Part shown: positions 14,474-56,004 of the stretch, one piece after another | How the letters are laid out: every line of letters starts with the position of its first letter | Position numbering within the stretch: position 1 is the first letter of the stretch | DNA from: a virus | IMG/VR virus record: IMGVR_UViG_3300050821_004356 | Coordinates: 47,568 to 111,567 of that record | Direction: 5' to 3' (one strand) | DNA: 64,000 bases | Position numbers and translations under genes: made by a program | Notes under the pieces: generated by a model | Databases searched by the model: none | What the model was told of the DNA's origin: nothing | Seen by the model: only the letters and a program-made list of their open reading frames with translations

Positions 14474-14676
14474 TTTAACTCCGTATAAGCCAGCCATTGA
14501 AGTGCTGTGTCTTGAAGCATGTGGGCGATCCACAAAGGGACGTGTTTACGGTGAACAAATATTACAGTATCCGGTTCCCCATGCCAAGCTATCATCTGCC
14601 GAGCTCTTTCGATTGCTGACTCTTTTGTGTCGTACAAAGGCTCGCCATCTTCTTCGCTGAATCCTGAGAATGCCAT
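14470..14676 (-). CDS. hypothetical protein between the polymerase halves
   Basis: TAATG overlap upstream and GTGA overlap downstream. Confidence 0.55.
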   Translation of the reverse strand: MAFSGFSEEDGEPLYDTKESAIERARQMIAWHGEPDTVIFVHRKHVPLWIAHMLQDTALQWLAYTELK

Positions 14677-24202: not shown

Positions 24203-24885
24203 GGCTTTATGATCTCCCGGCTGACAAATCCAGCAACAAATCCGATGCCAAACCATTTCATTTTACCTTTACGCGCGTTTGCTTTCTCTGCATTTAGCAC
24301 TTTAGCGTCTGTATCAATCTGGTCTTTTAAGACTTTCTTGTCTTCGACTATGATGTTCGCTTGGTCAGCTATCGTTGCTGTTTGATTTTTGATTATTCCG
24401 TTTTGCTGTACGACCGTTTGTGCGTCCGCTATGCCTTGGTCTAGCCTTGTGACTATATCGACAGCTAATGGCAACGGCACTATCAAATCCTGGGTCGAAT
24501 CTAGAGTGATTGTCCCTTGTTTAAATCCCGTAATAGTCTCTATGCGATGTCCTAAATCCGGCGCAGGCAGGGCCTTGTCGTGTATAATTTGGACTTTTGC
24601 TTGTGACTGTGTTTGGGATATTGTTAATAGGAAAGCTGCGTTATCTTTGTCGCGTTGGGCCTGGTTGGCTGCGAACAGATTCGCAAGTTGTGTGCTGTGG
24701 TCCTTCTCGACGGCCAGTGCTTGCTCGGCCTGGTTGGCTCTCGCGGTCTCGATGGCCGCATATTTGGATTCAAAGAGGTAAACGCCCGAGAGCAGCGCTA
24801 TGCCTAGCAGAATGTATAGCACGGCGTGGTGCGCGGTTATCCAAACGCCTGCCTTGGATTCGATACTTTGTATTTCAGTTGTCAT
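24199..24885 (-). CDS. membrane-anchored coiled-coil protein (spanin-like)
   Basis: N-terminal TM helix, coiled coil, C-terminal hydrophobic WFGIGFVAGF. Confidence 0.5.
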   Translation of the reverse strand: MTTEIQSIESKAGVWITAHHAVLYILLGIALLSGVYLFESKYAAIETARANQAEQALAVEKDHSTQLANLFAANQAQRDKDNAAFLLTISQTQSQAKVQIIHDKALPAPDLGHRIETITGFKQGTITLDSTQDLIVPLPLAVDIVTRLDQGIADAQTVVQQNGIIKNQTATIADQANIIVEDKKVLKDQIDTDAKVLNAEKANARKGKMKWFGIGFVAGFVSREIIKP

Positions 24886-25352
24886 TCATGCTCCCCCTTC
24901 CTTTGGATCGGTAGTTTAGGGGCATGCCCCTGATCTTTGCTTTTTATTCGCGCGAGCCTTTTCAACATTGCTCGATGTTTCTTGGTTCCTACTTTCCCGG
25001 GATAGCCATAGTGGTCATAACCTAGCGCCTGGGATGCGGGGGGATTTTCCAAATAGATGTGTAGCATACGAACGATATACAGCAAAGTTACCCCTTCTTC
25101 TTTATGCAGGCCCAGTCGGACAAAAGCGTTCTCTAACTTACCTAACAAAGGATTACATTGAGAACAAAGCAAACCTCTAAACAGGCCATCCGAGTGGGCG
25201 TGGTCGGATGCCAAGCGTTGGTTTGGTCGACGCTCTAGTCGGCCGCATAGAGCGCAACGTTTCTTTTGAAACGCCTCTACGCGATCCCATTTTTCGACAG
25301 TTAGTTTAAAACTGTCCATTAAACGTTTTTCTCTTGCTTTTATGCTTTCCAT
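24882..25352 (-). CDS. endonuclease VII-like nuclease
   Basis: CALC, DHAH..G.FRGLLC..CN..LG. Confidence 0.85.
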   Translation of the reverse strand: MESIKAREKRLMDSFKLTVEKWDRVEAFQKKRCALCGRLERRPNQRLASDHAHSDGLFRGLLCSQCNPLLGKLENAFVRLGLHKEEGVTLLYIVRMLHIYLENPPASQALGYDHYGYPGKVGTKKHRAMLKRLARIKSKDQGHAPKLPIQRKGEHE

Positions 25353-38489: not shown

Positions 38490-38565
38490 GGTGTCCGTAG
38501 TGTAGTGGCTAGCACGCGGGCCTGTGAAGCCTTAAGGTTGGTTTCGAATACCAAGGGACACCCCA
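38490..38565 (+). tRNA. tRNA-His(GUG)
   Basis: Cloverleaf, G-1/C73, encoded CCA. Confidence 0.9.
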
Positions 38566-38584
38566 TATTTTTAAAGATAAGTGC

Positions 38585-38613
38585 TTGACAAAGTTTTAAG
38601 ATCGCGATACAAT
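38585..38613 (+). promoter_or_regulatory. sigma70-type promoter for the tRNA operon
   Basis: TTGACA-17-TACAAT. Confidence 0.85.
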
Positions 38614-38625
38614 GTTTTTGTAAAT

Positions 38626-38704
38626 CGAGGAATGGGGAAGTCTGGCCGTTCCCGCTGCTTTCGGAAAGCAGAGATCGTTGATTCGAATTCAACTTCCTCG
38701 ACCA
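38626..38704 (+). tRNA. tRNA-Pro(CGG)
   Basis: Cloverleaf, CCA. Confidence 0.9.
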
Positions 38705-38706
38705 GT

Positions 38707-38780
38707 CGGGCGTTCTGATAGTGGTAGTCTCCGTGCTTTGGAAGCATGTGGCGTGTGTTCGATTCACACATGCCCGACCA
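38707..38780 (+). tRNA. tRNA-Pro(UGG)
   Basis: Cloverleaf, CCA. Confidence 0.88.
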
Positions 38781-38973
38781 TTTTATTAAGTTTGGACCCA
38801 ACATGTCTGATCATGACAGACGCTCGCGCGCTGGTAAGGGCACCGGGTCCAATTGCGATAACCTTAAAATTCTGACCGGTACGGTTTAGAAGCCGGTATC
38901 GCAACGAGCCTCGGCGTCGGCTCACTAAAATATAGACGCCAGGATTTAAGTCCAGCACGGAGAAGCTATTGTG

Positions 38974-39080
38974 TTGGCGGATCAGACGGAAATGTGGGTT
39001 CGAATCCCACGGGCTATAACAGGTGAGTCAGCCGTGTATACGGCACCTGAGCCTTTAGTGCAATGGTAGCACGCCGTCAA
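38974..39080 (+). ncRNA. circularly permuted tRNA-like RNA (YrlA/Y-RNA-like)
   Basis: T-arm GTGGG-TTCGAAT-CCCAC precedes a closed acceptor-like stem and D-arm GTGC-AATGGTA-GCAC. Confidence 0.7.
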
Positions 39081-39089
39081 ATTTTCTAT

Positions 39090-39174
39090 TCCCGAGTGGC
39101 GGAATGCATACGTAACGCGTTTAGACCGCGTCGCTCGAAAGAGATTGTGGGTCCAAGTCCCACCTCGGGAACCA
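39090..39174 (+). tRNA. tRNA-Leu(UAG)
   Basis: Class II cloverleaf, CCA. Confidence 0.88.
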
Positions 39175-39181
39175 ATTTTGT

Positions 39182-39256
39182 GGCTCTCTCGTTCAATGGA
39201 GAGGACGTTCGGTTTCTACCCGAACAATGTCGGTTCGATTCCGACGGGGGCTTCCA
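39182..39256 (+). tRNA. tRNA-Arg(UCU)
   Basis: Cloverleaf, CCA. Confidence 0.9.
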
Positions 39257-39262
39257 AGTTTT

Positions 39263-39338
39263 GGGTCTATCGTCCAAAGGGACAGGGCTCGGGTTTCCTA
39301 AACCCGCAATCACGGTTCGATCCCGTGTGGACCCTCCA
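39263..39338 (+). tRNA. tRNA-Arg(CCU)
   Basis: Cloverleaf, CCA. Confidence 0.9.
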
Positions 39339-39344
39339 GTTTAT

Positions 39345-39420
39345 GGGCTTCTCGTCTAACAGGACAAGGCTCTGGTCTTCGAAACCAGCTATCGCGATTC
39401 GAGTTCGCGGAGGCCCTCCA
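39345..39420 (+). tRNA. tRNA-Arg(UCG)
   Basis: Cloverleaf, CCA. Confidence 0.88.
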
Positions 39421-39425
39421 GCTTT

Positions 39426-39501
39426 GAACTTGTCATCTAACGGGACAAGGTGCAGCCCTGCGAAGGCTGATATCACGGTTCGAGTCCGTGCAGGTTCACC
39501 A
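39426..39501 (+). tRNA. tRNA-Arg(GCG)
   Basis: CAGCC-CTGCGAA-GGCTG anticodon arm, CCA. Confidence 0.88.
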
Positions 39502-39509
39502 TTTTTAAT

Positions 39510-39594
39510 CCGCTGCTGGCGAAACGGCAGACGCATCCGCCTCAAGAGCGGACGCCTAAACAGCGTGAAGGTTCGAATCCTTCGCGGCGGACCA
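39510..39594 (+). tRNA. tRNA-Leu(CAA)
   Basis: Class II cloverleaf, CCA. Confidence 0.9.
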
Positions 39595-39602
39595 AGTTCT
39601 GT

Positions 39603-39681
39603 GGGTGGTCCCGCGCACCGCGCGGCTCTGTGATGAAGCTAGACTAGTCACAGGATGAGTGGTGAGATTCCACGACTTCCC
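39603..39681 (+). ncRNA. tRNA-like RNA without CCA (8/4 geometry)
   Basis: GGGTGGTC/GACTTCCC closing stem, GTGG-TGAGATT-CCAC T-like arm, two further hairpins. Confidence 0.5.
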
Positions 39682-39692
39682 AGATTTTCAAT

Positions 39693-39782
39693 TGTCGGTT
39701 GCGAAGGTTCGTGGCAGAGTCTTATAAACTCTTCGGGCCAGATAAGCCTTGCCGGAAAGATCGTTACTTTCATCGACAACCA
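39693..39782 (+). tRNA. atypical tRNA with UAU anticodon and long variable arm
   Basis: TGTCGGT/ATCGACA acceptor, AGAGT-CTTATAA-ACTCT, GAAAG/CTTTC T-stem, ACCA. Confidence 0.7.
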
Positions 39783-39786
39783 ATTT

Positions 39787-39870
39787 GAGCGTGTGGCGGA
39801 AAGGCATACGCAGGGCACTTAAAATGCCCCGTCGAAAGACATGAGGGTCCGAATCCCTCGGCGCTCACCA
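39787..39870 (+). tRNA. tRNA-Leu(UAA)
   Basis: Class II cloverleaf, CCA. Confidence 0.9.
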
Positions 39871-39875
39871 AGTTT

Positions 39876-39949
39876 GCATGAATCGACAAGTGGTAAGTTA
39901 GCTGTTTGCAAAACAGCCATCAGTGGTTCGATTCCACTTTCATGCTCCA
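39876..39949 (+). tRNA. tRNA-Cys(GCA)
   Basis: Cloverleaf, U73, CCA. Confidence 0.9.
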
Positions 39950-40031
39950 AGTTTGGGCACCTGACACCTAACAGTGGCAGGGGAAAGTCCAAAACGTTTT
40001 CGCACGGTCAACGAAAGACGGTGCTACATTT

Positions 40032-40310
40032 TGGTAGCGTAGACGAACGCGGCGAGAAACCCGAGAGGGCTATAAGCCGAGGAAATTCAGGCCACATCTC
40101 AACATCGAACGGTGGAAGCTGCCGGACGCGTAAGCGTACAAGTAAGGCTCGATACCGAAAGGTCATTCAAGTCGAGTAACTCTTTTCGGGTGTAAGCGCA
40201 AATAGGCTCTGAGAACTTGTTGAGTTTGATGAAGAGCGGGTAGCGTGCTTCGCGAAAGCGACTAGAGAGGAATGTTCGTTCTAGACAGAAGCCTGATTAT
40301 AGCGTCACCA
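40032..40310 (+). ncRNA. rnpB: RNase P RNA (compact)
   Basis: GAGGAAATTCAGGC / ACAGAAGCCTGATTA (P4 with bulged U), P2 GACGAACG/TGTTCGTT, TGTAAGCGCAAATAG, GGGTAG..GCTT, AGAGGAATG. Confidence 0.82.
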
Positions 40311-40323
40311 AAATAATTTTCAA

Positions 40324-40399
40324 GTGTCTGTAGCTCATTCAGTAGAGCACTCGGCTCTTACCCGAGGGGTGGTTGGGGCAGAGCCAACCAGACGCACCA
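40324..40399 (+). tRNA. tRNA-Lys(CUU) with atypical T-loop GGCAGAG
   Basis: Cloverleaf, CCA. Confidence 0.82.
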
Positions 40400-40401
40400 A
40401 T

Positions 40402-40476
40402 GGAGTGCTAGTGTCAAAGTAGCACAGCGGCCTTTTAAGCCGACGAGTGTTGGTCCAAGTCCAACGCGCTCCACCA
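40402..40476 (+). tRNA. tRNA-Lys(UUU)
   Basis: Cloverleaf, CCA. Confidence 0.85.
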
Positions 40477-40485
40477 ATTTTCTGT

Positions 40486-40561
40486 AGCCTGTTAGCAAAC
40501 TGGCCGTATGCACCTCGCCTACACCGAGGCCGGAAGAGTTCGATTCTCTTACGGGCTACCA
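40486..40561 (+). tRNA. tRNA-Val(UAC)
   Basis: Cloverleaf with C33, CCA. Confidence 0.85.
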
Positions 40562-40670
40562 ATTTTCGATTGCCCGGTTGCTTACGGCGACGGTGTAGAT
40601 GAGTGTGTCGGAACCGAGAGGCCGTAAATACTCCACGGCGGCATTCACCGCAATCGAATTAATTTTCTGT

Positions 40671-40745
40671 GGCGATGTCATCTAGTGATTAGGATGCTTG
40701 CTTCTCAAGCAAGTCACGCGGGTTTGAATCCCGCCGACGCTACCA
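40671..40745 (+). tRNA. tRNA-Glu(CUC)
   Basis: Cloverleaf, CCA. Confidence 0.85.
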
Positions 40746-40754
40746 AGTTTCAGT

Positions 40755-40828
40755 GCCGCTATCTGCTATGGATAGGCAACGAGACTTTCAATCTCGTAGA
40801 CAGGGTTTGAGTCCCTGTAGCGGTACCA
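40755..40828 (+). tRNA. tRNA-Glu(UUC)
   Basis: Cloverleaf, CCA. Confidence 0.85.
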
Positions 40829-40838
40829 ATTTTACAGT

Positions 40839-40914
40839 GGGCAGTTAGTGTTAAATGGGAGCACGTGTCGCTTGCACCGACAAAGTGAGGGTTCGAATCC
40901 GTCACAGTCCACCA
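40839..40914 (+). tRNA. tRNA-Ala(UGC)
   Basis: G3:U70 pair, CCA. Confidence 0.85.
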
Positions 40915-40925
40915 ATTTTTCCTGT

Positions 40926-41001
40926 TGTCGCGGAGCACATGTGGACGGGCGCTCGCTCGATAAGCGAGAGGTAGGTGGTTCGAATCCACCGGCGACAACC
41001 A
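40926..41001 (+). tRNA. tRNA-Ile(GAU) with atypical D arm
   Basis: CTCGC-TCGATAA-GCGAG anticodon arm, canonical T arm, CCA. Confidence 0.78.
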
Positions 41002-41017
41002 ATTTTTGCGGTGACAT

Positions 41018-41260
41018 ATGACGATAGCAGACGCAGCATCAGTTGCGGCACTAGCAGTCGATTTGATTGCCTTGTGGTTCCTGATTGGGATTTGGAAAGA
41101 TGATCATGCGATGAGAGTCGCATCGGAAGAGTCTTTGAAGGCCCAGTTAGAGTATCTTGGATTGCGCCGTAAATGGTACGAAGGCCGCACCAAGAAAAAG
41201 GACGAAAAGAATGTCGCTCAGTCTAGACCAGAAGATGGCACTGACGCGAACAGTCTGTAA
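41018..41260 (+). CDS. small membrane protein within the tRNA cluster
   Basis: N-terminal TM helix; fills a gap between tRNAs. Confidence 0.55.
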   Translation: MTIADAASVAALAVDLIALWFLIGIWKDDHAMRVASEESLKAQLEYLGLRRKWYEGRTKKKDEKNVAQSRPEDGTDANSL

Positions 41261-41324
41261 CATTCTTGGAGTCATCATCTCAATCATCTACGTTGTGTGG
41301 GTGATGAGTAAATAAATTTTCAAT

Positions 41325-41411
41325 TGTAGGGTCGACTAGCGGCCGATGTCGCGGGTCTCATAAGCCCGATGCGAAAGCACACCGTGGGTTCGAATCCCAC
41401 CTCTGCAACCA
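41325..41411 (+). tRNA. tRNA-Met(CAU), initiator-like, with long variable arm
   Basis: CGGGT-CTCATAA-GCCCG; variable arm TGC-GAAA-GCA; CCA. Confidence 0.82.
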
Positions 41412-41418
41412 ATTTTGA

Positions 41419-41493
41419 GCGAGGCTGATGTTAGTGGTAGCATGTCAGTCTTCCAAACTGAACGGACGAGTTCGAGTCTCGTGCTTCGCTCCA
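41419..41493 (+). tRNA. tRNA-Gly(UCC)
   Basis: Cloverleaf, CCA. Confidence 0.9.
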
Positions 41494-41498
41494 ATTTT

Positions 41499-41572
41499 GC
41501 TTTGTTAGTTCAACGGTAGAACGCGTCCTTGGTAAGGATGAGGTAAAGGTTCAATTCCTTTACGAAGCTCCA
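41499..41572 (+). tRNA. tRNA-Thr(GGU)
   Basis: Cloverleaf, CCA. Confidence 0.9.
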
Positions 41573-41579
41573 GTTTTGA

Positions 41580-41655
41580 GCACGGCTCATACAGCGGCCT
41601 AGTATGCGAAGCTTGTACCTTCGACACGTTGGTTCAAATCCAGCGCTGTGCTCCA
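41580..41655 (+). tRNA. tRNA-Thr(UGU)
   Basis: Cloverleaf, CCA. Confidence 0.88.
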
Positions 41656-41757
41656 ATTTCTAGAACGTGGAACCGCGAGTCTGTGGAATGGCGGATAGTG
41701 CAGACCTGAATAATGCTCCGGTACTCCGGAGACGCGAACGCCCCACGAGATTTATGA

Positions 41758-41831
41758 GCACTGCTAGTCTAGTGGCAGGACACTCCCCTCGTAAGGCAGA
41801 GGCAACTGTTCGATTCAGTTGCGGTGCTCCA
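41758..41831 (+). tRNA. tRNA-Thr(CGU)
   Basis: Cloverleaf, CCA. Confidence 0.85.
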
Positions 41832-41904
41832 AGTTTTGTGCTGTGACATAAAACACATCGGTGAGAGGCGTCCATAGACCCACCGAGGCACAAAAGTTTT
41901 CTGA

Positions 41905-41978
41905 GCGATGTTGGTATAGTGGTAGCACGAGACCTTGCCAAGGTCTAGGCACCGTTTCGATTACGGTACGTCGCTCCA
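41905..41978 (+). tRNA. tRNA-Gly(GCC)
   Basis: Cloverleaf, CCA. Confidence 0.88.
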
Positions 41979-41987
41979 ATTTTCTGT

Positions 41988-42076
41988 GGATGGTTAGCTC
42001 AAGCGGCAACGACACTTGGCTGTAAACCAAGCGGTCCTAGCGACCTTCCGAGGTTCGAGTCCTCGACTATCCACCA
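41988..42076 (+). tRNA. tRNA-Tyr(GUA)
   Basis: Class II cloverleaf, CCA. Confidence 0.88.
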
Positions 42077-42087
42077 TAATTTTCTAC

Positions 42088-42175
42088 TGGGGTGTGGCTC
42101 AATTGGTACAGCACCTGACTGTTAATCAGGCAGAGTTAACGCTCATTATAGGTTCGAATCCTATTGCCCCAGCCA
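42088..42175 (+). tRNA. tRNA-Asn(GUU) with long variable arm
   Basis: CCTGA-CTGTTAA-TCAGG; variable arm GAGT-TAAC-GCTC; G73, CCA. Confidence 0.85.
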
Positions 42176-42183
42176 TTTTAAAC

Positions 42184-42261
42184 GGAGATGTCGCGTAGAG
42201 GCCTATCGCACTCCCCTGTCACGGGAGATCATCGTGGGTTCGAATCCCATCATTTCCGCCA
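42184..42261 (+). tRNA. tRNA-Asp(GUC)
   Basis: Cloverleaf, G73, CCA. Confidence 0.9.
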
Positions 42262-42269
42262 TTTTCAAC

Positions 42270-42344
42270 AGGTCGGTAGTGTAACGGTAACATCACGCAC
42301 TCCAAACGCGTCGGATGGGGGTTCGAGTCCCTCCTGACCTGCCA
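42270..42344 (+). tRNA. tRNA-Trp(CCA)
   Basis: Cloverleaf, CCA. Confidence 0.9.
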
Positions 42345-42352
42345 ATTTTTAC

Positions 42353-42443
42353 GGAAGGTTGACGGAACCTGGCTAACGTATAGGTTTGCTAAACCTAAGT
42401 CAACCGAAAGGTTGTTTGTGTTCAAATCACAAACCTTCCGCCA
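42353..42443 (+). tRNA. tRNA-Ser(GCU)
   Basis: Class II cloverleaf, CCA. Confidence 0.88.
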
Positions 42444-42448
42444 TTTAC

Positions 42449-42532
42449 GGAGGATGCCGCTCAAGGGGGCAATCCGGTTTGAACCCGGAGGGCGCTGTAA
42501 GGCGCGGTGTTCGATTCATCCTTCCTCCTCCA
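42449..42532 (+). tRNA. tRNA-Ser(UGA), 8/4 fold
   Basis: GGAGGATG/CTTCCTCC acceptor, 4-bp T stem GGTG/CATC, long variable arm. Confidence 0.78.
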
Positions 42533-42625
42533 TATTCTACGCTCGTGGCTGAAATGCCGTTTGGTGTAGACACACCCTAACGGGGACTGAGCACCGTCGC
42601 TAACAGTATAAAATTGGGGCGACAT

Positions 42626-42699
42626 CCCTTGTAGGTGTAACGGTAGCACCTTCCGTTGAAGCCGGAAAGGACGTGGTTCAATTCCACGACTCGGGACCA
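42626..42699 (+). tRNA. tRNA-Phe(GAA) with mismatched acceptor stem
   Basis: TTCCG-TTGAAGC-CGGAA, T arm, ACCA. Confidence 0.75.
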
Positions 42700-42707
42700 T
42701 TTTCAAT

Positions 42708-42783
42708 TGGGATGTAGTTTAACTGGCAAAATAGTCGGCTTTGAACCGACCAGATGAAGGTCCGAATCCTTCCGCCCCAACCA
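42708..42783 (+). tRNA. tRNA-Gln(UUG)
   Basis: U1-A72, cloverleaf, CCA. Confidence 0.88.
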
Positions 42784-42792
42784 ATTTTCAAT

Positions 42793-42868
42793 TGCCAAGT
42801 GGCGCAACTGGTAGCGCAGGCGGCTCTGAACCGCAAGGCTGATCGTTCGAATCGATCTTTGGCAACCA
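42793..42868 (+). tRNA. tRNA-Gln(CUG)
   Basis: U1-A72, cloverleaf, CCA. Confidence 0.88.
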
Positions 42869-43492: not shown

Positions 43493-43912
43493 ATGAGCGT
43501 TCTCCATAAGGTCGAAGTAGGCGCAGAGATTTATATTATCGCGGCGATGTCGTTGATCGCAGTATCAGCGTCTATTGCAGCGATCAGACTGCTTATTGAA
43601 AAGAATAAACCAGTATTTAACTATCCTGCTGATGTACCTACAGCCGAGGCCAAGGCCGCAGCTGAAGGTTATCTTCATCGGTGCCTAGTGGCTCTCGATA
43701 TTTTTATGAACGTCGTCTTCTTCGCAGGTAAGCAGGGTGAGACAATGTCTACGCATGCTTGGATCGCGTCGCAGTCAGGCGCGCTCTGGGGCAAGTTGAT
43801 GAACCGTTGGCTCGACGGCTTCCAAGCGAACCACGGCCCGCAAGCAGCATCGGGAGATTTAGAGCGCGCGCAAGGCGAAGTGAACCGCCTTAGAAAGATT
43901 TTAGGAGTTTAG
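43493..43912 (+). CDS. conserved-type phage membrane protein
   Basis: LVALD..N....G...ET.S pattern; GAGG RBS. Confidence 0.6.
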   Translation: MSVLHKVEVGAEIYIIAAMSLIAVSASIAAIRLLIEKNKPVFNYPADVPTAEAKAAAEGYLHRCLVALDIFMNVVFFAGKQGETMSTHAWIASQSGALWGKLMNRWLDGFQANHGPQAASGDLERAQGEVNRLRKILGV

Positions 43913-44003
43913 TTTCAAACGCCGAGCAAAGGCACCCGAAAGGGTACGGCGTAATTACGAGCGCAAGATGCTTTGCTAAGGCGTGCTCGTCGAGTAACTG
44001 GGT

Positions 44004-44408
44004 ATGAAGATTCTTCGTAAGTTCCCTTACTGGTATTTGATCGCAGTACCTGCCCTGCTATTCGGCTTGGGCGTTGTGTCCAATCAATCGGTCTTGGTTG
44101 CCAACCACGGTAAGTTCCCGGTGATGCTGAGCCAAGGCATGTACTATAAATACTGTACCCCACAGTCCGAGGAAGACGAAGACGCCCCTAGTATCTCTTG
44201 TATCAAAGGCGGCGAGATGATCGACGAGACGCATAGCGTTATGGGTCCGAACTCACACTTGAAAGTATTGTCGGACATCATACCCATCGGGTCAACTATT
44301 TACAGTATCGGAGATGGCCTTCTTGAATTAGGTTCGTGGCTGCTTTCTTATACGCTCATCGCGTGGCTATTCCTGACAATTCGAAAGTTAGCAACTTTGG
44401 TGAACTAA
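44004..44408 (+). CDS. DUF5317-like membrane protein
   Basis: N..V..ANHG.FPV, LSDII, SIGD. Confidence 0.65.
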   Translation: MKILRKFPYWYLIAVPALLFGLGVVSNQSVLVANHGKFPVMLSQGMYYKYCTPQSEEDEDAPSISCIKGGEMIDETHSVMGPNSHLKVLSDIIPIGSTIYSIGDGLLELGSWLLSYTLIAWLFLTIRKLATLVN

Positions 44409-49333: not shown

Positions 49334-50101
49334 ATGTCTACAGTCACTTGGGATTCGACGGCTGTAGCAAATAGTACTCTGCAAGGTACTGTCGATAGCG
49401 CTTCTACAATCATTGTAACTCTTAACATCGCCGGAACTCTCACAGCGGGATTGATTGATTTTGAAGCATCGACAGACGGAGTGGTGTGGTACCCCATTAC
49501 AGGTTTTGTTCAAAGTACGTTTGCTATATTCACTAATTGGCAACCATTCTATGGTTCTTCCATAGCCCTTCAGTTTAACATCGCAGGGTTTAGTATATAC
49601 CGCTGTCGTTTGGTAACTACGCTGACGGGCACAGGCAACGTAACTATATACAGTAACGGAGTTGCGAATGCCTGTTTTACAATAGTGTCATCTGTTGTGC
49701 AGCAAAACGGCGCGAACCTGCATACGGTCGTTGATAGTGGAACAATCACCGCGACCCCGACTACAGCAGCGGCTGGTGCCCTTTTAGCTAAAATTATCAG
49801 TGCCACTGGGGCACTCACACTAATAAAAGGTTCGACAGGTAATTTGTACGGGATGTATTTTCTCAACAATACAGCCGTGGCTTCGTGGATTCAGTTCTTC
49901 AACGCAGCTACCACTGGTGCTGTCACCCTTGGAACAACTGTCCCTGTTTGGGCCGCCCCAATCCCGGCAAACGGAATTCTGAATATTTCACCGGGGTACT
50001 TTGCACAATTCAACTTTTCGGCGGGCATTGTCTATGCCGCAACATCTTTACTTCAAGGTACCGTCGTTGAAAGTATGTCGGGAACAGTGGAGTATTTATA
50101 G
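49334..50101 (+). CDS. beta-rich putative structural protein
   Basis: FEASTDG..W; C-terminal domain resembles 50308-50691 (VTLGTTVP). Confidence 0.65.
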   Translation: MSTVTWDSTAVANSTLQGTVDSASTIIVTLNIAGTLTAGLIDFEASTDGVVWYPITGFVQSTFAIFTNWQPFYGSSIALQFNIAGFSIYRCRLVTTLTGTGNVTIYSNGVANACFTIVSSVVQQNGANLHTVVDSGTITATPTTAAAGALLAKIISATGALTLIKGSTGNLYGMYFLNNTAVASWIQFFNAATTGAVTLGTTVPVWAAPIPANGILNISPGYFAQFNFSAGIVYAATSLLQGTVVESMSGTVEYL

Positions 50102-50142
50102 TAGTTAGTATTTAAAACAATCAAATAAAAAGGAGCAACACA

Positions 50143-50298
50143 ATGAACACCACAATAGAAAAGATTTTCGAAGAGATCGGCCGATTGCACATTCAGATTT
50201 CGCAACAAGCAGTTTACATTGCGCAGTTGGAAGCGACGAATAAATCGCTCCAAGCAGCAGCGCAAGCGGCAACCCCAGTAGCATCTGCTACGGCGTAG
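50143..50298 (+). CDS. small coiled-coil protein
   Basis: AAGGAG RBS then MNTTIEKIFEEIG. Confidence 0.55.
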   Translation: MNTTIEKIFEEIGRLHIQISQQAVYIAQLEATNKSLQAAAQAATPVASATA

Positions 50299-50307
50299 GA
50301 GATTTAA

Positions 50308-50691
50308 GTGGGTATAACTCAAGTCAACGTAACATCGCCCGCGAATGAAATAATCTTTCAAGATACTGCGATGGGTACTTCTGTCGATGGTATCAAAGCA
50401 TCCTCTGCACTCGTCTATTCAGTTACAGTCGATAACAGCGCGAACGGTGGAGCGGCATCCTATGTCAAACTTTATAATCTAGCTAGTGGCTCGGTTACTC
50501 TTGGAACTACTGTTCCAGACGAGGTTATTCTGGCCCCAGCTGGTCAAGTTGTTACAGCGATTTTCAAAACGGGCGCAGCAGGCGGGAAGACTTTCGGCAC
50601 CGCGTTAAGCGCAGCCTGTGTGACTACAGGCGGAACGGCTGGTATAGTAGCGCCGTCCTCTTCGGTAGTCGTCTCCGTGAATTACGTCTAG
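50308..50691 (+). CDS. beta-rich putative structural protein
   Basis: AGGAG RBS; paralog of the C-domain of 49334-50101. Confidence 0.65.
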   Translation: MGITQVNVTSPANEIIFQDTAMGTSVDGIKASSALVYSVTVDNSANGGAASYVKLYNLASGSVTLGTTVPDEVILAPAGQVVTAIFKTGAAGGKTFGTALSAACVTTGGTAGIVAPSSSVVVSVNYV

Positions 50692-50695
50692 CCGC

Positions 50696-50724
50696 TTGAC
50701 AAGTAAGTAGATTTGTGGTAGCAT
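50696..50724 (+). promoter_or_regulatory. sigma70-type promoter
   Basis: TTGACA-17-TAGCAT with extended TG. Confidence 0.7.
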
Positions 50725-50756
50725 AAATTAGCCCTTGGGGTTGCTCCCAGGGGTCA

Positions 50757-50804
50757 GACTTGGGGGGTGCCTATTACATCCCCCTTGTCGTTCTTAATAG
50801 GAGA
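50757..50804 (+). promoter_or_regulatory. anti-SD pseudoknot leader, copy 1
   Basis: Stem GGGGGGTG/CATCCCCC; loop CCTATTA pairs with TAATAGG(AGA). Confidence 0.7.
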
Positions 50805-50809
50805 ATAAA

Positions 50810-51481
50810 ATGGGAACAGGACTGTGCAGTAAGTGTCATGTTGTTTTAACGCTTGAGAATTCTTGCGAGTCAGTGTTTGTAAAGCACGCCGGGTATTGTC
50901 GGCTGTGCGCTAAGACTCGGATAGGAACAGGGCGTTGTTACAGCTGTAAAAATGTTTTGGATATAAGCAATAGTAACCCATCTACGTTGGCTATTGGTCG
51001 CGGCAAGTGTCGTTCTTGCGAACACGAAGAATATGAAGCTAGTGCAGAGGTAGTAAAAAAGCGTGCCTCTAAATGGTCGAAGGACAACCCCGAAAGACGT
51101 AAGGCTATACAAGCAAAAAATTGGGAAAAATATTGGCGCGAACTTCCAGTTGAGATTAAGAAGATTATATCTAATAAAAACACCGCGCGATACAGAGAAG
51201 TAAAATTCGGTATTACTCACGAAGAGTTTGTTGCTAAATTTCAAGCCCAAAACGGTCGTTGTGCTCTTTGTGATAAGCAGATGGTTCTAGGGAAGTATAC
51301 AATGCTTACCCCATGCCAAGACCACGACCACAAGACAGGCGAATTAAGAGATATATTGTGCAGCGCCTGTAATTTGTTGTTGGGTTACTGCTATGAAAGT
51401 CAAACAATTTTAGTAAGTGCCATAAGGTATTTACAAAAGCACAAAGGCGATAGTTCGATCCAAATCGCTGAGTGTGGATAG
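50810..51481 (+). CDS. endonuclease VII-like homing endonuclease
   Basis: N-terminal CxxC repeats; CALC, DHDH.TG..R..LC..CN. Confidence 0.85.
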   Translation: MGTGLCSKCHVVLTLENSCESVFVKHAGYCRLCAKTRIGTGRCYSCKNVLDISNSNPSTLAIGRGKCRSCEHEEYEASAEVVKKRASKWSKDNPERRKAIQAKNWEKYWRELPVEIKKIISNKNTARYREVKFGITHEEFVAKFQAQNGRCALCDKQMVLGKYTMLTPCQDHDHKTGELRDILCSACNLLLGYCYESQTILVSAIRYLQKHKGDSSIQIAECG

Positions 51482-51587
51482 TTCAGAATAAGTTCTGTTC
51501 TCTCCGAAAGCGTGTGTAAACGGACAAGGAGTAGTTAAAGAAGTTTCCGCTACCGTTCTGCAGGCGTATATCAAGAGGTAACAAAAA

Positions 51588-52229
51588 GTGTCATATCCCA
51601 TCCAGGATTTTCAAGTCAATGGTCAGTTCCCAGCCACAGTTGGCGGCTCTGGTTCGACCGTCAAGTATTTCGGCCGCAACGTTCCCGCAGCCGCAGGCGC
51701 AAACTGGGTAGCCGCACCGGCGACCCCGTCAGCGACCAGCCCTGTGGGCGCAATGTGGGTCCCAGGCGACAACAAGTTGAACGGTCAGTTGATGTTCGTT
51801 ACCGCGACTGGTGATTTTACGCCAGCGTCTAACGCGACGTCTGAAACCGTTACGGTTGCTCTTTACGGCGTGACCGGTTCTTTGACGGCCCCTGTTTATA
51901 CGATTCTCGCTTCGACAGGTGCGTTTACTCCTGGCGTTGACGGTATCGCGTATAACTTCAGCATCCAGGCTGAGTTGTTCGGGTCCAACAACAGCGGCAT
52001 CGTTGGCGGAACGTACACGTCAATCGTGAACAACACTGTTACTAACGGCACTGGCGCATCTAGCACATCCGTTGTGGCATTGGTGAACTCGTTGACCGGT
52101 ATCAACTTTGCTAGCGGCAACCCGCTGTTGTACCAAGCTGCTCCATTCGGTTTGGTGGTTGGTATCACCTTCGGCGCAAGTAACGTGGCTAACAAGGCCA
52201 ACTTGTACCAGTTCAGCATCGAAGCTTAA
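51588..52229 (+). CDS. putative virion structural protein
   Basis: GAGG RBS; Gly/Ala/Thr-rich beta composition. Confidence 0.6.
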   Translation: MSYPIQDFQVNGQFPATVGGSGSTVKYFGRNVPAAAGANWVAAPATPSATSPVGAMWVPGDNKLNGQLMFVTATGDFTPASNATSETVTVALYGVTGSLTAPVYTILASTGAFTPGVDGIAYNFSIQAELFGSNNSGIVGGTYTSIVNNTVTNGTGASSTSVVALVNSLTGINFASGNPLLYQAAPFGLVVGITFGASNVANKANLYQFSIEA

Positions 52230-52373
52230 TTAACCTCGGGGGTCTAACAAGGCCCCCACAACTTTCTCTGTGACTCGCGCGTAACTTATTTGAACGGCGA
52301 TCCAGAGATATCGTGCGCAATCCACAGTCAGTCTGGCCGTTACAACCGGTGACAAAAATTTAAAGGGACCCAC

Positions 52374-52625
52374 ATGTCGGCGTTTGATACTAGCACGGAT
52401 GAAGGCTTTAAACAATTTCTTATCGAAAAGATAGGTGAGATACATACATCGTCTGCAACGATGGAAGGTAATTTTAAAGCTGCAATGGAGCAGCACGCGG
52501 CTTTAAAAGAACGCGTGGGTAATATAGAACGCGCGGCTCGATCAGCAGGACATTGGGAGAACGGTAAGTTCATAGCTCTGACTCTCGTACACGCAGCGGC
52601 AAACATTTTTAAGGTTCATATTTAA
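52374..52625 (+). CDS. coiled-coil protein with C-terminal hydrophobic segment
   Basis: Composition and architecture. Confidence 0.55.
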   Translation: MSAFDTSTDEGFKQFLIEKIGEIHTSSATMEGNFKAAMEQHAALKERVGNIERAARSAGHWENGKFIALTLVHAAANIFKVHI

Positions 52626-52637
52626 CAGGAGATTTTT

Positions 52638-52964
52638 ATGAAGCAAGTAAAAGAAGGCGCACAAGGCGGTAACATGCCTGGTAAAGAAGGTCATCGCGCG
52701 ACTGGTAAGAGCAATCATCCGGAAGCAACCCTTCGTAACGGTTCTAAGCCGAGCGGAAACTCATTGGCTGCATTTGGATTGAAGCAGAGTCCTCATGAGG
52801 AAGCTCCGAGCGGGGAAAGTAATCACGAAACTCGTCGTTTCGGCAACAAGCCGAGCGCAGAGAAGGTTAAGCCTGTTTCGCACGATAAGGCAACCTTGAG
52901 CCGTGCCCGCATGTTGAACGTTCGCTCTGAAAAGGGTGGAGCGGAAAAGGGCGGCGGTTGGTAA
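52638..52964 (+). CDS. small basic disordered protein
   Basis: AGGAG RBS; motif shared with 35920-36209. Confidence 0.6.
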   Translation: MKQVKEGAQGGNMPGKEGHRATGKSNHPEATLRNGSKPSGNSLAAFGLKQSPHEEAPSGESNHETRRFGNKPSAEKVKPVSHDKATLSRARMLNVRSEKGGAEKGGGW

Positions 52965-52986
52965 TTTAAGTTTGTAGCTACAGGTT

Positions 52987-53024
52987 GGGCGGTGCCCTAT
53001 CACCGCCCTTACTCTATAGGGAGA
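52987..53024 (+). promoter_or_regulatory. anti-SD pseudoknot leader, copy 2
   Basis: Stem GGGCGGTG/CACCGCCC; loop CCCTAT pairs with ATAGGG(AGA). Confidence 0.65.
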
Positions 53025-53033
53025 GTATATAAA

Positions 53034-53534
53034 ATGAGAATAGATACGTGTGTAAACTGTAATAAAGATTTTTCGCACGACAGTGGTAAACGACGATTAA
53101 GGTGCCTCACGTGTCGCAAAGAAAATTTCAGAATCAAAGCGTTAGAAAGATATTGGAAAAACCCAGAGAAGTCTAGGTTATCTACGGCGCGTTGGCGAGA
53201 AAACAATAAAGATAAAATTAAGAACTATGCTCGTAAGAACTCAGTACGATACTTGTATGGTTTGAGTTTTGAACAGTATGAAAAAATGCTTAAAGAGCAA
53301 GACGGGAAATGTTTTATTTGTGGCGGCACTCCTAATAGGGAATTGGATGTTGACCACGATCACGAAACGAAAGAAGTTCGTAAATTATTGTGCAACCGAT
53401 GTAATCGACTCATCGCCATACTAGAGATAGGTGGACTAGATGTCGGTCGCAAGGCAATTGTTTATTTGGAGAGTTATGCCAGCCGAGAGCCAGAAGCAAC
53501 AGATCGCGATGGCGATAGCGCTTCATCATCCTGA
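53034..53534 (+). CDS. endonuclease VII-like homing endonuclease
   Basis: YGLS.EQY..M...Q..KC.IC, VDHDH.T..VR.LLC..CN; start at ATG 53034. Confidence 0.88.
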   Translation: MRIDTCVNCNKDFSHDSGKRRLRCLTCRKENFRIKALERYWKNPEKSRLSTARWRENNKDKIKNYARKNSVRYLYGLSFEQYEKMLKEQDGKCFICGGTPNRELDVDHDHETKEVRKLLCNRCNRLIAILEIGGLDVGRKAIVYLESYASREPEATDRDGDSASSS

Positions 53535-53664
53535 AAAACTACACGCAGAGAATCGAGGCATGTTAGATATGTCGCGCAAAGCGTTACATGATTTTGCCTC
53601 GACTCCGCGCCATAATCTACCAACGTACGCACACGCGAGAGCAGCACGTAAGAAAGAATCCTAG
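53476..53664 (+). CDS. DUF3008-like small protein
   Basis: MPAES.KQQ.A..IAL...MS...L.DFAST.R.NLP. Confidence 0.65.
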   Translation: MPAESQKQQIAMAIALHHPEKLHAENRGMLDMSRKALHDFASTPRHNLPTYAHARAARKKES

Positions 53665-53693
53665 AGTCCTACTAACGGAAGAACTACTTGAGC

Positions 53694-53803
53694 GGCGGCG
53701 AGTAGCGCACGCAGAAACGATACTTGCCGGTTGATTGAGTCCAACCGCTTCCTAAGCCCCGGTCAATCGGGTGCAGAAGAGCACGTTAGTGGTGACCGCC
53801 GCC
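53694..53803 (+). ncRNA. unidentified structured RNA
   Basis: GGCGGCG/CGCCGCC closing stem; complementary loops ATTGA/TCAAT. Confidence 0.45.
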
Positions 53804-53821
53804 AAATTTTATTGAGGTACT

Positions 53822-54058
53822 ATGGTACATAACGGACATATCGGTTTTGAAATTGAACATTGCGATGATGGTAGCGCTATGTGCAGCTACGAGCACGAAG
53901 ATAAACTAAAGTCTGCGCGGCACGCGGTAGCGGACCTAGATGCGATTCACGATAGTCTCGAAGACTACTTACGTGAACAAGAAGAAGAGGAAAAGAAAGA
54001 AGAAGATGTTCATCCAGGCATTCACGATGAGATTAAACATCCCGAGGATGAAGAGTAA
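53822..54058 (+). CDS. His-rich small protein (paralog 1)
   Basis: H..DGSA...H...HAV..LD..HDS. Confidence 0.65.
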   Translation: MVHNGHIGFEIEHCDDGSAMCSYEHEDKLKSARHAVADLDAIHDSLEDYLREQEEEEKKEEDVHPGIHDEIKHPEDEE

Positions 54059-54060
54059 TC

Positions 54061-54345
54061 ATGAAAAAGCATAAATTTCATAAGACGACCGGGCAACTTC
54101 ACAAGGATGGTAGTGCGACCGTAGAACACCATCACTCCGAAGGTCCGCACAAGAACGTTAAGCACGCGGTTCAATCTTTGGATCACTTGCACGACAGCAT
54201 GCAGGCAAATTTGGGAGCGCCTAACCCAGGAGAACCAGAAGCGGATATGGGTCAGCACGGCGTGCCTCAAGCCCAGGCAGCACCAGCAGGTATCCCGATG
54301 GCCCCTGGAGCAGCACCGGCCCCGGCACCGGTACCAGGAGTATAA
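54061..54345 (+). CDS. His-rich small protein (paralog 2)
   Basis: Same motif as paralog 1. Confidence 0.65.
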   Translation: MKKHKFHKTTGQLHKDGSATVEHHHSEGPHKNVKHAVQSLDHLHDSMQANLGAPNPGEPEADMGQHGVPQAQAAPAGIPMAPGAAPAPAPVPGV

Positions 54346-54346
54346 T

Positions 54347-54535
54347 ATGGCAAAGAATCCATCACTTTATAGAGCGATTCATCACATGCGTAAGGGCGGC
54401 TTGCATCGCGCATTAGGTGTACCCGAAGGTGAAAAAATCCCTTCTAAGAAAATAGAAGCCGCAACACATAGCGATAACGCTCATGTGGCTCATATGGCAC
54501 GGTTCGCACAAACACTCAAAAGTTTTAAAAAGTAA
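54347..54535 (+). CDS. small basic phage protein
   Basis: KGGLHRALGVPEGEKIP motif; AGGAG RBS. Confidence 0.65.
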   Translation: MAKNPSLYRAIHHMRKGGLHRALGVPEGEKIPSKKIEAATHSDNAHVAHMARFAQTLKSFKK

Positions 54536-54561
54536 TTCTTCGGCTTGATCACCGAAGCGTA

Positions 54562-54609
54562 GACTTGGGGCGTACCTAAATTACGCTCCTTGTCGCATCT
54601 ATTTAGGAG
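54562..54609 (+). promoter_or_regulatory. anti-SD pseudoknot leader, copy 3
   Basis: Stem GGGGCGTA/TACGCTCC; loop CCTAAAT pairs with ATTTAGG(AG). Confidence 0.7.
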
Positions 54610-55128
54610 ATGAAAATGAAAACCTGTACTCGTTGTGAAAAAGAATTATCGGAAGAATCTTTCTACAAAGATAAGAGAACTGGAAAGCTACGATCTTGGT
54701 GCAAGAAGTGTCATCAAGAAGTTAGCTTAGGTTATCAAAACAACCACAAAGACGATAATCAGCGCCGTGGACGCGAGTATCGTGATCGTCACCCATTTAG
54801 ATTGGATGTTCAGCGCGCACACAGACGAGCTAAACGTTACAACACTTTGTCTACTCTAACTGAATCAGAGTGGAGAACACAAGTGGAATTATTTTCTTTT
54901 ATGTGCCACGTATGTGGACAAGAACTAACGTTAGAAGTTAAAAAGGAAAATACGCTTAGTTTGGATCATCTTATCCCGCTCAACCGTGGCGGAATAAATG
55001 CAAAAGAGAACGTAGCCCCAACCTGTTGGAATTGCAACAGGTCGAAGGGGGACAGAACACAAACAGAGTTTGAAGATTGGATTAGGAAAGTAACAAATCA
55101 TAATGAGTTTTTTCAAAGCTATTTTTGA
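54610..55128 (+). CDS. HNH endonuclease
   Basis: KTC..C...FY...CK.C; DHLIPLNRGG.N..EN....C..CN.SK. Confidence 0.9.
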   Translation: MKMKTCTRCEKELSEESFYKDKRTGKLRSWCKKCHQEVSLGYQNNHKDDNQRRGREYRDRHPFRLDVQRAHRRAKRYNTLSTLTESEWRTQVELFSFMCHVCGQELTLEVKKENTLSLDHLIPLNRGGINAKENVAPTCWNCNRSKGDRTQTEFEDWIRKVTNHNEFFQSYF

Positions 55129-55387
55129 TGACAGAGATAAGTCTGTGAACGCCAGTCACTGCATAGCTTTTTTACTGACGTTCTCTAGCATCGCGTGGGT
55201 TACATATCTCGTCCATAAGAATCATATTTTGCCTGACCTATCAGGTATCGCTTATCTCCTAGGCGGTTCCGGCGCAATGAACGTAGCCAATAAGATGGAA
55301 GATATCGTTGCCAAGTTTTCTAAAAAATCCAGTGATGGTTCTGTAGCAGAGTCATCGGTTGTAGTTAAGAAGATCGAAAGCCAATGA
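55103..55387 (+). CDS. small two-TM membrane protein (holin-like)
   Basis: Two hydrophobic segments and a charged tail. Confidence 0.45.
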   Translation: MSFFKAIFDDRDKSVNASHCIAFLLTFSSIAWVTYLVHKNHILPDLSGIAYLLGGSGAMNVANKMEDIVAKFSKKSSDGSVAESSVVVKKIESQ

Positions 55388-56004
55388 AAATAGTTGCTTT
55401 TTTCATAAGACACGGCGATACAGATTGGAACGACGACGAAGACGATAAGTTTCGCGGCGACGAAGATATCCCAATAAACGAAAAAGGTCGCGCGCAAGCA
55501 GAAGAGCTTCCTCGTTACTTCGCTGCACGGGAGTTTAGTAAAGCATTTCACAGTGGTATGCAACGTACCGCGCAAACACTAGCACCTTTGATGGAAGCAA
55601 AAGGCATGAAGTCGATTTCAGTTCCAAAGATGAATAGCTTGAATACTGGAGACTTCACAGGTCTGCCAAAGACCGAGAAGAACAAAAAGAAACTAGAGTG
55701 GTACCGTGAGAACCCAGAGGTCAAGATTCCTGGTGGTGAGAGCGTGCAGCACTTCCGAGATCGCATTGATCCTAAAATAGAGATGGCCATCCGAGTCGGT
55801 GAAGAAGCTGGTAAGCCGTCTATCTCTTGTGTCCACGGTTCGGTTATGAGAGAAATTTCCCGTTTGTTTCATAACGGCGATTACAACGCAGTTAAAGTTG
55901 AACCTGGCGGTATTGTGGGGATTTTTAAATCGCCGAACGGCTACCAAGCAAAATCTCTCGTGAAAGATAACCCAGCAGACGAAGATATTAAGGCAGGGAG
56001 TTAA
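55384..56004 (+). CDS. histidine phosphatase (PGM family)
   Basis: RHG.T.WN, R..QT, PGGES, HG. Confidence 0.9.
   Translation: MKIVAFFIRHGDTDWNDDEDDKFRGDEDIPINEKGRAQAEELPRYFAAREFSKAFHSGMQRTAQTLAPLMEAKGMKSISVPKMNSLNTGDFTGLPKTEKNKKKLEWYRENPEVKIPGGESVQHFRDRIDPKIEMAIRVGEEAGKPSISCVHGSVMREISRLFHNGDYNAVKVEPGGIVGIFKSPNGYQAKSLVKDNPADEDIKAGS

Follow-up and report, generated by a model that had tools for sequence, protein, structure and literature searches.

Three small nuclease open reading frames (ORFs) lie on the + strand just 5′ of the terminase gene of an uncultured virus, each preceded by a G-rich hairpin whose loop is complementary to the ribosome-binding site (RBS) that follows it. What do these leaders do, and do they belong to the resident genome or to the nucleases? 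The window analysed here is the whole 64,000-nucleotide stretch from position 47,568 to 111,567 of IMG/VR record IMGVR_UViG_3300050821_004356. That record (G000) comes from an uncultured virus, is complete at 111,567 bp and has terminal repeats, and the window forms its right-hand 64 kb; we compared it with two related phage genomes (G001 and G003). Pfam and gene searches of the window placed the terminase, portal and major head genes downstream of the three leader sites. Our analyses make it likely that each site is the sense-strand RNA leader of a free-standing homing-endonuclease cassette, and that it represses translation by occluding the RBS.

The first nuclease gene (50810–51481) encodes 223 residues with an Endonuclease_7 (HNH-type) domain (Pfam E = 1e-16), the second (53034–53534) 166 residues with an Endonuclease_7 domain by Pfam, and the third (54616–55128) 170 residues with an HNH domain by Pfam, all on the + strand. 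This agrees with the two families, EndoVII and HNH, named in an earlier reading of this DNA (the original prediction). For the third gene, that prediction and the ORF finder both gave ATG 54610, which touches the Shine–Dalgarno (SD) sequence. We replace it with ATG 54616, most likely the true start, because AGGAG then stands 6 nt upstream, a normal SD spacing, and the N-terminus reads MK-x-C-x-x-C as in relatives.

RNA folding reproduced the predicted 8-bp G-rich stem (hairpin 1, hp1) in all three copies, and the proposed loop/target pairs, CCTATTA/TAATAGG, CCCTAT/ATAGGG and CCTAAAT/ATTTAGG, are exact. In leader copy 1 (50757–50809, + strand as for all that follow; covariance model score 77 bits), hp1 (50762–50769/50777–50784, loop 50770–50776) is extended by an outer stem (50757–50759/50787–50789). 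Copy 3 (54562–54615; 67 bits) has its outer stem at 54562–54564/54592–54594 and hp1 at 54567–54574/54582–54589 (loop 54575–54581), and copy 2 (52985–53033; 52 bits) has hp1 at 52987–52994/53001–53008 (loop 52995–53000) with no clear outer stem. The GAC/GTC outer pairs claimed for copies 1 and 3, together with the upstream hairpin (hp0), also appeared in the RNA folds, hp0 having 10 bp in copy 1 (50731–50754) and a 6-bp core in copy 3 (54538–54557); the former has homologues with compensatory changes in G001 and G003. The loop–RBS helix and stems of the pseudoknot that had been proposed stand, but the description was incomplete, having overlooked a second hairpin (hp2) present in each copy. This hp2 folds as 4–5 bp (GTTCT/AGAAT, ACTCT/AGAGT and CATCT/AGATG), with arms at 50790–50794/50802–50806 in copy 1, 53011–53015/53022–53026 in copy 2 and 54596–54600/54608–54612 in copy 3. 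Its loop (50795–50801, containing the SD GG, in copy 1; 53016–53021 in copy 2; 54601–54607 in copy 3) is exactly what the hp1 loop targets, and the remaining SD forms the 3′ arm of hp2. By sequence, the arrangement is of the kissing-loop type rather than a pseudoknot alone, and the designation 'anti-Shine–Dalgarno' is partly apt, in that the hp1 loop pairs with the first GG of the SD plus 4–5 nt upstream but not with the rest of the SD.

The anatomy shared by the wider family described below is an hp1 of 7–8 GC-rich bp, usually extended by a 3–4 bp outer stem, with a loop of 6–7 nt that begins with CC and is complementary over its whole length to 6–7 nt ending in the first SD GG. The remaining SD bases, AGA(G/A/T), pair with a (C)TCT-like hp2 arm, so that each base of the SD has a partner inside the leader. 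Besides pairing, sequence is conserved in the GGG/CCC at the hp1 base, the G–C closing pair and the CC at the start of the loop. A strict pattern for the leader matches only the three sites within the window, and a generic scan for hairpin loops complementary to downstream sequence gave 27 matches in the three genomes versus ~12 in Markov simulations, the excess being the leader copies.

The same leader, with its letters changed but compensated, precedes relatives of nuclease 1 found in two further phage records. A covariance model (R1) that was built from five copies and restricted to hp1 and the outer stem matched further copies in G001, G003 and G000, the last outside the window (G000:250–312). 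An alignment of three terminases was used to retrieve 58 related viral contigs, and a second model, likewise confined to hp1 and the outer stem (R2), gave 45 matches in 26 of 45 records. Removal of duplicates left 49 distinct leader copies from ~30 related uncultured-phage contigs. Pairs were counted in these with a dedicated parser, five copies being placed by hand; 3′ of hp1, register was lost in both the MAFFT and the model alignments. Because the models contained neither the loop–target nor the hp2 pairs, the test for covariation at these helices is not circular.

Loop and target proved to be matched almost without fault: 330 of the 332 cells were Watson–Crick pairs, with one G·U and one mismatch, among 33 distinct loop sequences and with all four pair types at each of loop positions 3–5. 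When partners were shuffled (n = 1000), on average 193 and at most 214 cells were paired. Sliding the target by 1–3 nt lowered pairing from 561/563 to at most 249/563 in a set enlarged by 33 copies from a pattern scan, which had been selected by exact loop match and are not counted as evidence of covariation. Pairs 1–4 of hp2 formed in 45–49 of the 48–49 copies scored, with C–G, T–A, A–T and T·G variants; those of hp1 formed in 43–49 copies per position, with compensatory variation; and the outer stem covaried through many different 3–4 bp combinations. The earlier observation that both helices differ between copies yet stay paired thus extends well beyond the three sites for which it was made. 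Among leader pairs, G·U outnumbered A·C by 55 to 4, and the fold under selection is therefore that of RNA from the sense strand of the gene. The distance from loop to target is narrow (15–20 nt), and identity between copies of one genome is limited to short runs (mean column identity 72% in alignment A1). The fourth copy in G000 (G000:250–312; L024:250–312) has a longer hp1 and the loop CCTCTAA, and precedes a GIY-YIG/NUMOD3 gene (L024:310–984); a promoter-like site, TTGACA-17-TAGGAT, ends 3 nt before its outer stem.

What follows the leader is, with few exceptions, a nuclease. A covariance-model search of phage genomes had been suggested in the original prediction as a check on this point, and with models built from more copies it did find the association: 46 of the 47 ORFs downstream of model-derived copies are nucleases, as called by Pfam, PHROGs or similarity to members so labelled, the remaining one being a 105-aa protein of no assigned family. 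The classes comprise EndoVII-type HNH, HNH, HNH_2, HNH_3, GIY-YIG with NUMOD3, T5orf172/MUG113, VRR-NUC and PDDEXK_5 (PD-(D/E)XK), that is, at least five families. A gene-blind pattern (GGGG, CC, CCCC, TCT and GGAGA, with fixed or loose gaps between them) was also scanned over 2.9 million viral contigs. It matched 93 stretches, of which 80 were examined as loci, a match being called structured if it had at least seven of eight stem pairs and an exact 7-nt loop complement. Structured matches numbered 44 of 84, and the genes after them were nuclease-like in 40 cases, the others being an AAA_25 protein, a zinc-ribbon ORF with no significant Pfam match, a decayed ORF and a contig end. None of 82 matches in bacterial and archaeal genomes, among the matches listed, was structured, and the contrast with viral contigs marks the leader as a phage feature. 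One exception from the viral scan, at L163:7758–7808, is a structured leader followed by a two-codon remnant ORF.

Within the three genomes compared, all three GIY-YIG genes carry the leader. A 156-aa Endonuclease_7 gene on the minus strand of the window (24882–25352), conserved in G001 (92943–93374) and G003 (43713–44120), has no leader in any of them, and probably represents not a mobile cassette but a core, resolvase-type enzyme of the phage itself.

Comparison of the same genomes bears on the ownership of the leader. Nuclease 1 and its leader occupy the same site in G000, G001 and G003, between homologues of a 127-aa and a 213-aa protein. Neither cassette 2 nor cassette 3 occurs in G001 or G003, leaders included, and the genes on either side abut there; at the cassette 3 site of these genomes the flanking genes overlap or abut, and the G000 insert (54536–55102), consisting of hp0, leader and ORF, is missing as a whole. 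Since the leader is absent together with the cassette in relatives, it belongs to the mobile cassette and not to the resident genome. Their nuclease domains and their presence or absence at intergenic sites are features by which the three genes fit free-standing homing-endonuclease cassettes, and the notion of a portable module that travels with nucleases is upheld both by this joint absence and by the near-exclusive association described above. Joint presence or absence of leader and cassette is shown by these data, as are helix covariation and specificity for nuclease cassettes.

A precedent for the function of such leaders exists in T4 I-TevI, I-TevII, I-TevIII and segB and in mobE of Aeromonas phage Aeh1, where stable RBS-sequestering hairpins make translation very inefficient, and where, in T4, late promoters yield RNAs without the inhibitory hairpin arm (PMC2988022, PMC3014915). 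Like the leader, these T4-type hairpins are cis RNA elements that lie directly 5′ of a homing-endonuclease ORF and pair its SD; they occur before intron-encoded and free-standing nucleases of different families, and are presumed to limit or delay synthesis. In our sequences too, the SD is computationally paired by a stable RNA structure with covarying helices. The leader would keep 30S subunits off the RBS, the SD being fully paired, with its GG side held by the hp1 loop and the remainder by the hp2 arm. Translation of the nuclease would then stay low despite the location of the cassette in transcribed phage operons, often with a promoter of its own. We infer this translational effect from the covarying pairing of the whole SD and from the T4 precedent. 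Calculated energies are consistent with it: the medians over the 49 copies are −7.3 kcal/mol for the loop:target duplex and −7.8 kcal/mol for the host SD:anti-SD duplex (16S tail), similar strengths, so that the intramolecular partner can compete with the ribosome and, being of equal strength, should outcompete it.

Several points weigh against this proposal. With a median of −4.0 kcal/mol, hp2 alone is weak, compared with −12.8 for the hp1 core and −19.7 for hp1 plus outer stem. A-form geometry suggests that the loop–RBS helix is incompatible with a closed outer stem and hp2: the long hairpin has ~13 layers, and a median of only ~5 nt, mostly hp2 arm, leads from its base to the target. Nor would a linker of 0–6 nt be expected to span a coaxial kissing complex of ~19 bp. 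The outer stem and hp2 on one side and the loop–RBS helix on the other would therefore be mutually exclusive, so that more than one conformer could be the repressive one, and, taken as a pseudoknot, the element has L1 = L2 = 0, which is unusual. Relief of repression as in T4 is not evident, because the promoter-like hexamers are upstream of the whole element, and how the nuclease ever gets made is left unexplained by occlusion. Finally, one structured leader precedes a gene that is not a nuclease, the AAA_25 (RecA/DnaB-like ATPase) gene at L185:3433–4326 on the minus strand.

The pairing elements of the fold originally proposed hold, but the improbable coexistence of the outer stem and hp2 with the loop–RBS helix had been overlooked. 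Hallmarks of two known kinds of fold are present in the data. The loop pairs, with covariation, with a strand 3′ of its hairpin (330/332 pairs, 33 loops), as in H-type pseudoknots, and two stem-closed loops are fully complementary, the hp2 loop being the target and hp2 itself covarying, as in kissing loops. The repressive fold would be either outer stem, hp1 and hp2 together, or hp1 with the loop–RBS pseudoknot. Estimated from geometry, L3 is ~9–10 nt if only the 8-bp hp1 core is kept and ~5 nt if the outer stem is closed. The loop–target distance fits an H-type pseudoknot on the 8-bp core, which can form only once the outer stem and hp2 have opened; nested fold and pseudoknot thus probably alternate in the leader.

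Promoter-like sequences accompany many copies. For cassette 1, a sigma-70-like promoter candidate on the + strand (50696–50724; TTGACA, 17 nt, TAGCAT with TG), called by consensus match only and, with 10 of 12 matches, the best in the region, lies upstream of hp0; G001 conserves this arrangement. In many copies −10-like hexamers (TATACT, TAAGAT/TAGGAT) end 5–8 nt before the hp1 core. Perfect 12-bp palindromes (TTGTAGCTACAA, TTGTACGTACAA, TTGATGCATCAA) stand 2–4 nt 5′ of the leader in about a quarter of the copies, and directly 5′ of copy 2 (52972–52982, + strand) are 11 of the 12 bases of TTGTAGCTACA, which occurs in the same form or as close variants before many copies. In G000 and G001 the exact palindrome is confined to the neighbourhood of leader copies, on which ground a role as a general phage promoter was rejected there; the cassettes may use it as an operator or as a promoter element of unusual type. 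Another upstream module, 30 nt before the leader in, for example, L105, L125, L127, L128 and L130, consists of TTCCCAC, a hairpin with a TTATAA-like loop and GTGG TATACT, directly adjoins the outer stem AATC, and resembles a promoter of the sigma-70 type whose spacer holds a hairpin.

One tentative refinement of occlusion, which we regard as rather doubtful, would turn these features into a bistable switch that senses the origin of the transcript, with two RNA classes translated differently. Read-through RNA, containing the 5′ strand of the outer stem, would form the long hairpin and the weak SD hairpin hp2. RNA initiated by the cassette's own promoter would begin with the GGG of hp1, lack the outer stem and form the loop–RBS pseudoknot. 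The hexamers 5–8 nt before the hp1 core would place a start ~7 nt downstream, at GGG; the outer stem covaries and so must matter in some RNA that contains it; and the loop–target distance is tightly kept. Rough energies point the same way (~−23.7 kcal/mol for the nested fold with the outer stem, ~−19 for the pseudoknot and ~−16.8 for the nested fold without the outer stem). The pseudoknot value, however, obtained by adding the textbook penalty of +9.6 to the medians, is a crude estimate, and the promoter calls are consensus matches only. Moreover, the promoter-like site of copy 1 is 5′ of hp0, such that its own transcript includes the outer stem, and copy 2 has no clear outer stem to lose. If the switch were real, it would be a 55-nt module giving a mobile nuclease promoter-dependent translation in any genomic context, a portable and self-contained analogue of the T4 late-promoter bypass common to at least five unrelated nuclease families. 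An improbable reading takes hp1 as the handle for a trans-acting phage or host factor, such as a Com-like activator, a helicase or an RNase, by which the mRNA would be opened or degraded at a defined moment, the cis pairing being the default-off state. In phage Mu, the Com protein opens a translation-blocking stem of the toxic mom gene, and the leader is conserved beyond pairing at the hp1 base, closing pair and loop start and stands before unrelated nucleases, which are themselves unlikely regulators for that reason. Yet no candidate factor was identified, stability and pairing with the SD GG also explain the conserved bases, and the loop, the most exposed part, varies freely (33–43 variants).

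It is quite improbable that hp1 mainly serves mRNA metabolism, as a 5′-terminal protective stem-loop or a leaky terminator or insulator to which RBS pairing would be secondary. Such a role would suit a GC-rich hairpin that has the core and extended energies given above and would stand at, or close to, the start of promoter-proximal RNAs, the flagging of copy 1 as terminator-like and the U-rich stretches after many copies, but it would leave the near-perfect loop–target pairing and the covarying hp2 unaccounted for. Most copies, moreover, have no U-run directly after the stem, and the cassette's own promoter would be useless with a terminator right behind it. As a general intrinsic terminator the element was rejected, copy 1 alone having passed a simple scan. 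A DNA-level element, be it a phage RNA polymerase promoter, a PeSL-like recombination cassette or a nuclease recognition site, is very improbable indeed. Copy 2 reads CTATAGGGAGA and contains an 11-nt match to the T7 promoter core, and PeSLs are repeated promoter/terminator cassettes that border variable genes in T4-like phages (PMC4122927). Against such an element, the target sequence drifts between copies with complementarity alone kept, the excess of G·U over A·C denotes strand-specific RNA pairing, and the short identical runs make poor recombination substrates. We dropped the T7-like promoter at copy 2, as the target varies with the loop and a search of the genome for a T7-type RNA polymerase found none, although its control was also silent.

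Repression by RBS occlusion, then, is the interpretation we retain, and the question becomes how far the leader departs from systems already described. T4-type hairpins are single and gene-specific, whereas the leader presents one architecture (outer stem, hp1, loop–RBS helix and hp2) before at least 80 cassettes of five or more nuclease families and, unlike them, splits the SD between two partners. In T4 the late promoter lies inside the structure. No such promoter was found inside the leader, where the 15–20 nt from loop to target leave no room between loop and RBS; the promoter-like hexamers are 5′ of hp1 or hp0, and at most the outer 5′ strand would be bypassed. The carriers also form a different clade, being ~100-kb uncultured phages as opposed to T-even phages. 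PeSLs (PMC2839356, PMC4122927) resemble the leader as small repeated modules with promoter-like sequence and stem-loops at the 5′ border of variable accessory genes. They differ in being conserved in sequence and serving as points of homologous exchange, in lacking RBS pairing and in not being nuclease-specific, whereas the leader keeps only its pairing; near-identical repeats of the kind expected of recombination points were not found among its copies (72% column identity, compensatory variation).

In the preQ1-I riboswitch platform and the T4/T2 gene 32 leader pseudoknot (PMC3014915), as in the leader, a hairpin loop pairs with bases at or near the RBS. The gene 32 pseudoknot, however, is 67 nt upstream and nucleates protein binding instead of covering the SD (PMC3014915), and the leader differs from SD-sequestering H-type pseudoknots in having no evident ligand pocket or protein operator and in pairing its entire loop. 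Type I toxin mRNAs such as aapA1/IsoA1 (PMC6733600) likewise have a harmful-protein mRNA silenced by SD-sequestering alternative folds, a resemblance of logic only; the leader has no known antisense RNA or processing step.

Loops of 6–7 nt that are closed by stems and complementary at every base are a hallmark of the ColE1 RNA I/RNA II and HIV TAR–TAR* complexes, which are intermolecular; the leader shares the fully complementary loops, but its hairpins are neighbours on one RNA, joined by a 0–6 nt linker.

At the three sites, Rfam 15 gave no match at the gathering score or at E ≤ 10 (elsewhere it found tRNAs and four hits at chance level). Full-text searches of the literature on such leaders returned T4-type hairpins only, with no pseudoknot, kissing loop or shared structured leader of homing-endonuclease genes. 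Both results favour the earlier suggestion of an undescribed family. Taken together, the comparisons suggest that the RBS of homing-endonuclease genes is occluded here by a family of multi-helix leaders that is shared and portable; the principle of occlusion is known, and this form of it appears to be new.

A search for DNA near-identity between positions 50000–56000 and cultured phages gave no match, and the best cultured-phage relative of the terminase, that of Tunturiibacter phage Tunturi_3, is only 27% identical. Model R2 found nothing convincing in the Tunturi_3 genome (E 0.18 and 0.55), so no cultured carrier of the leader is known. GIY-YIG and EndoVII proteins had only distant matches (30–45% identity) in cultured phages, and protein relatives of nuclease 3 were not found among viral contigs by a pattern method.

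Elsewhere in the window, Rfam located 28 tRNA genes clustered at 38491–42865 on the + strand. Between cassette 3 and the terminase is a His_Phos_1 (histidine-phosphatase) gene (55384–56004), whose G003 homologue is placed differently among small neighbours. Directly 3′ of the 213-aa gene we noted, by reading the sequence, a GC-rich hairpin (GGGGGTC … GCCCCC, 52237–52258), which may be a terminator or stabiliser of the abundant-looking transcript of this gene. A 209-aa ORF on the minus strand (13904–14533) lies between the halves of a putative split polymerase and is joined to its neighbours by overlapping stop and start codons; neither a Pfam match nor a leader was found for it.

Homing endonucleases are needed in tiny, well-timed amounts and otherwise harm the phage that carries them, and the control of free-standing nuclease genes outside T-even phages is largely an open area (PMC2988022). 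In the leader, the same compact RNA design recurs ahead of at least five unrelated nuclease families and moves between genomes with them, and the covariation, with dozens of loops each matched to its own RBS, is unusually clean. The leader is a candidate new RNA family. It can serve as a marker for mobile nuclease cassettes in metagenomic phage contigs, one that distinguishes mobile EndoVII-type genes from the conserved leaderless EndoVII gene of the minus strand, and it offers a compact natural device for holding the translation of toxic genes tightly in check. Should the switch between the two folds prove true, a mobile gene would have in it a novel means of sensing the context in which it is transcribed.

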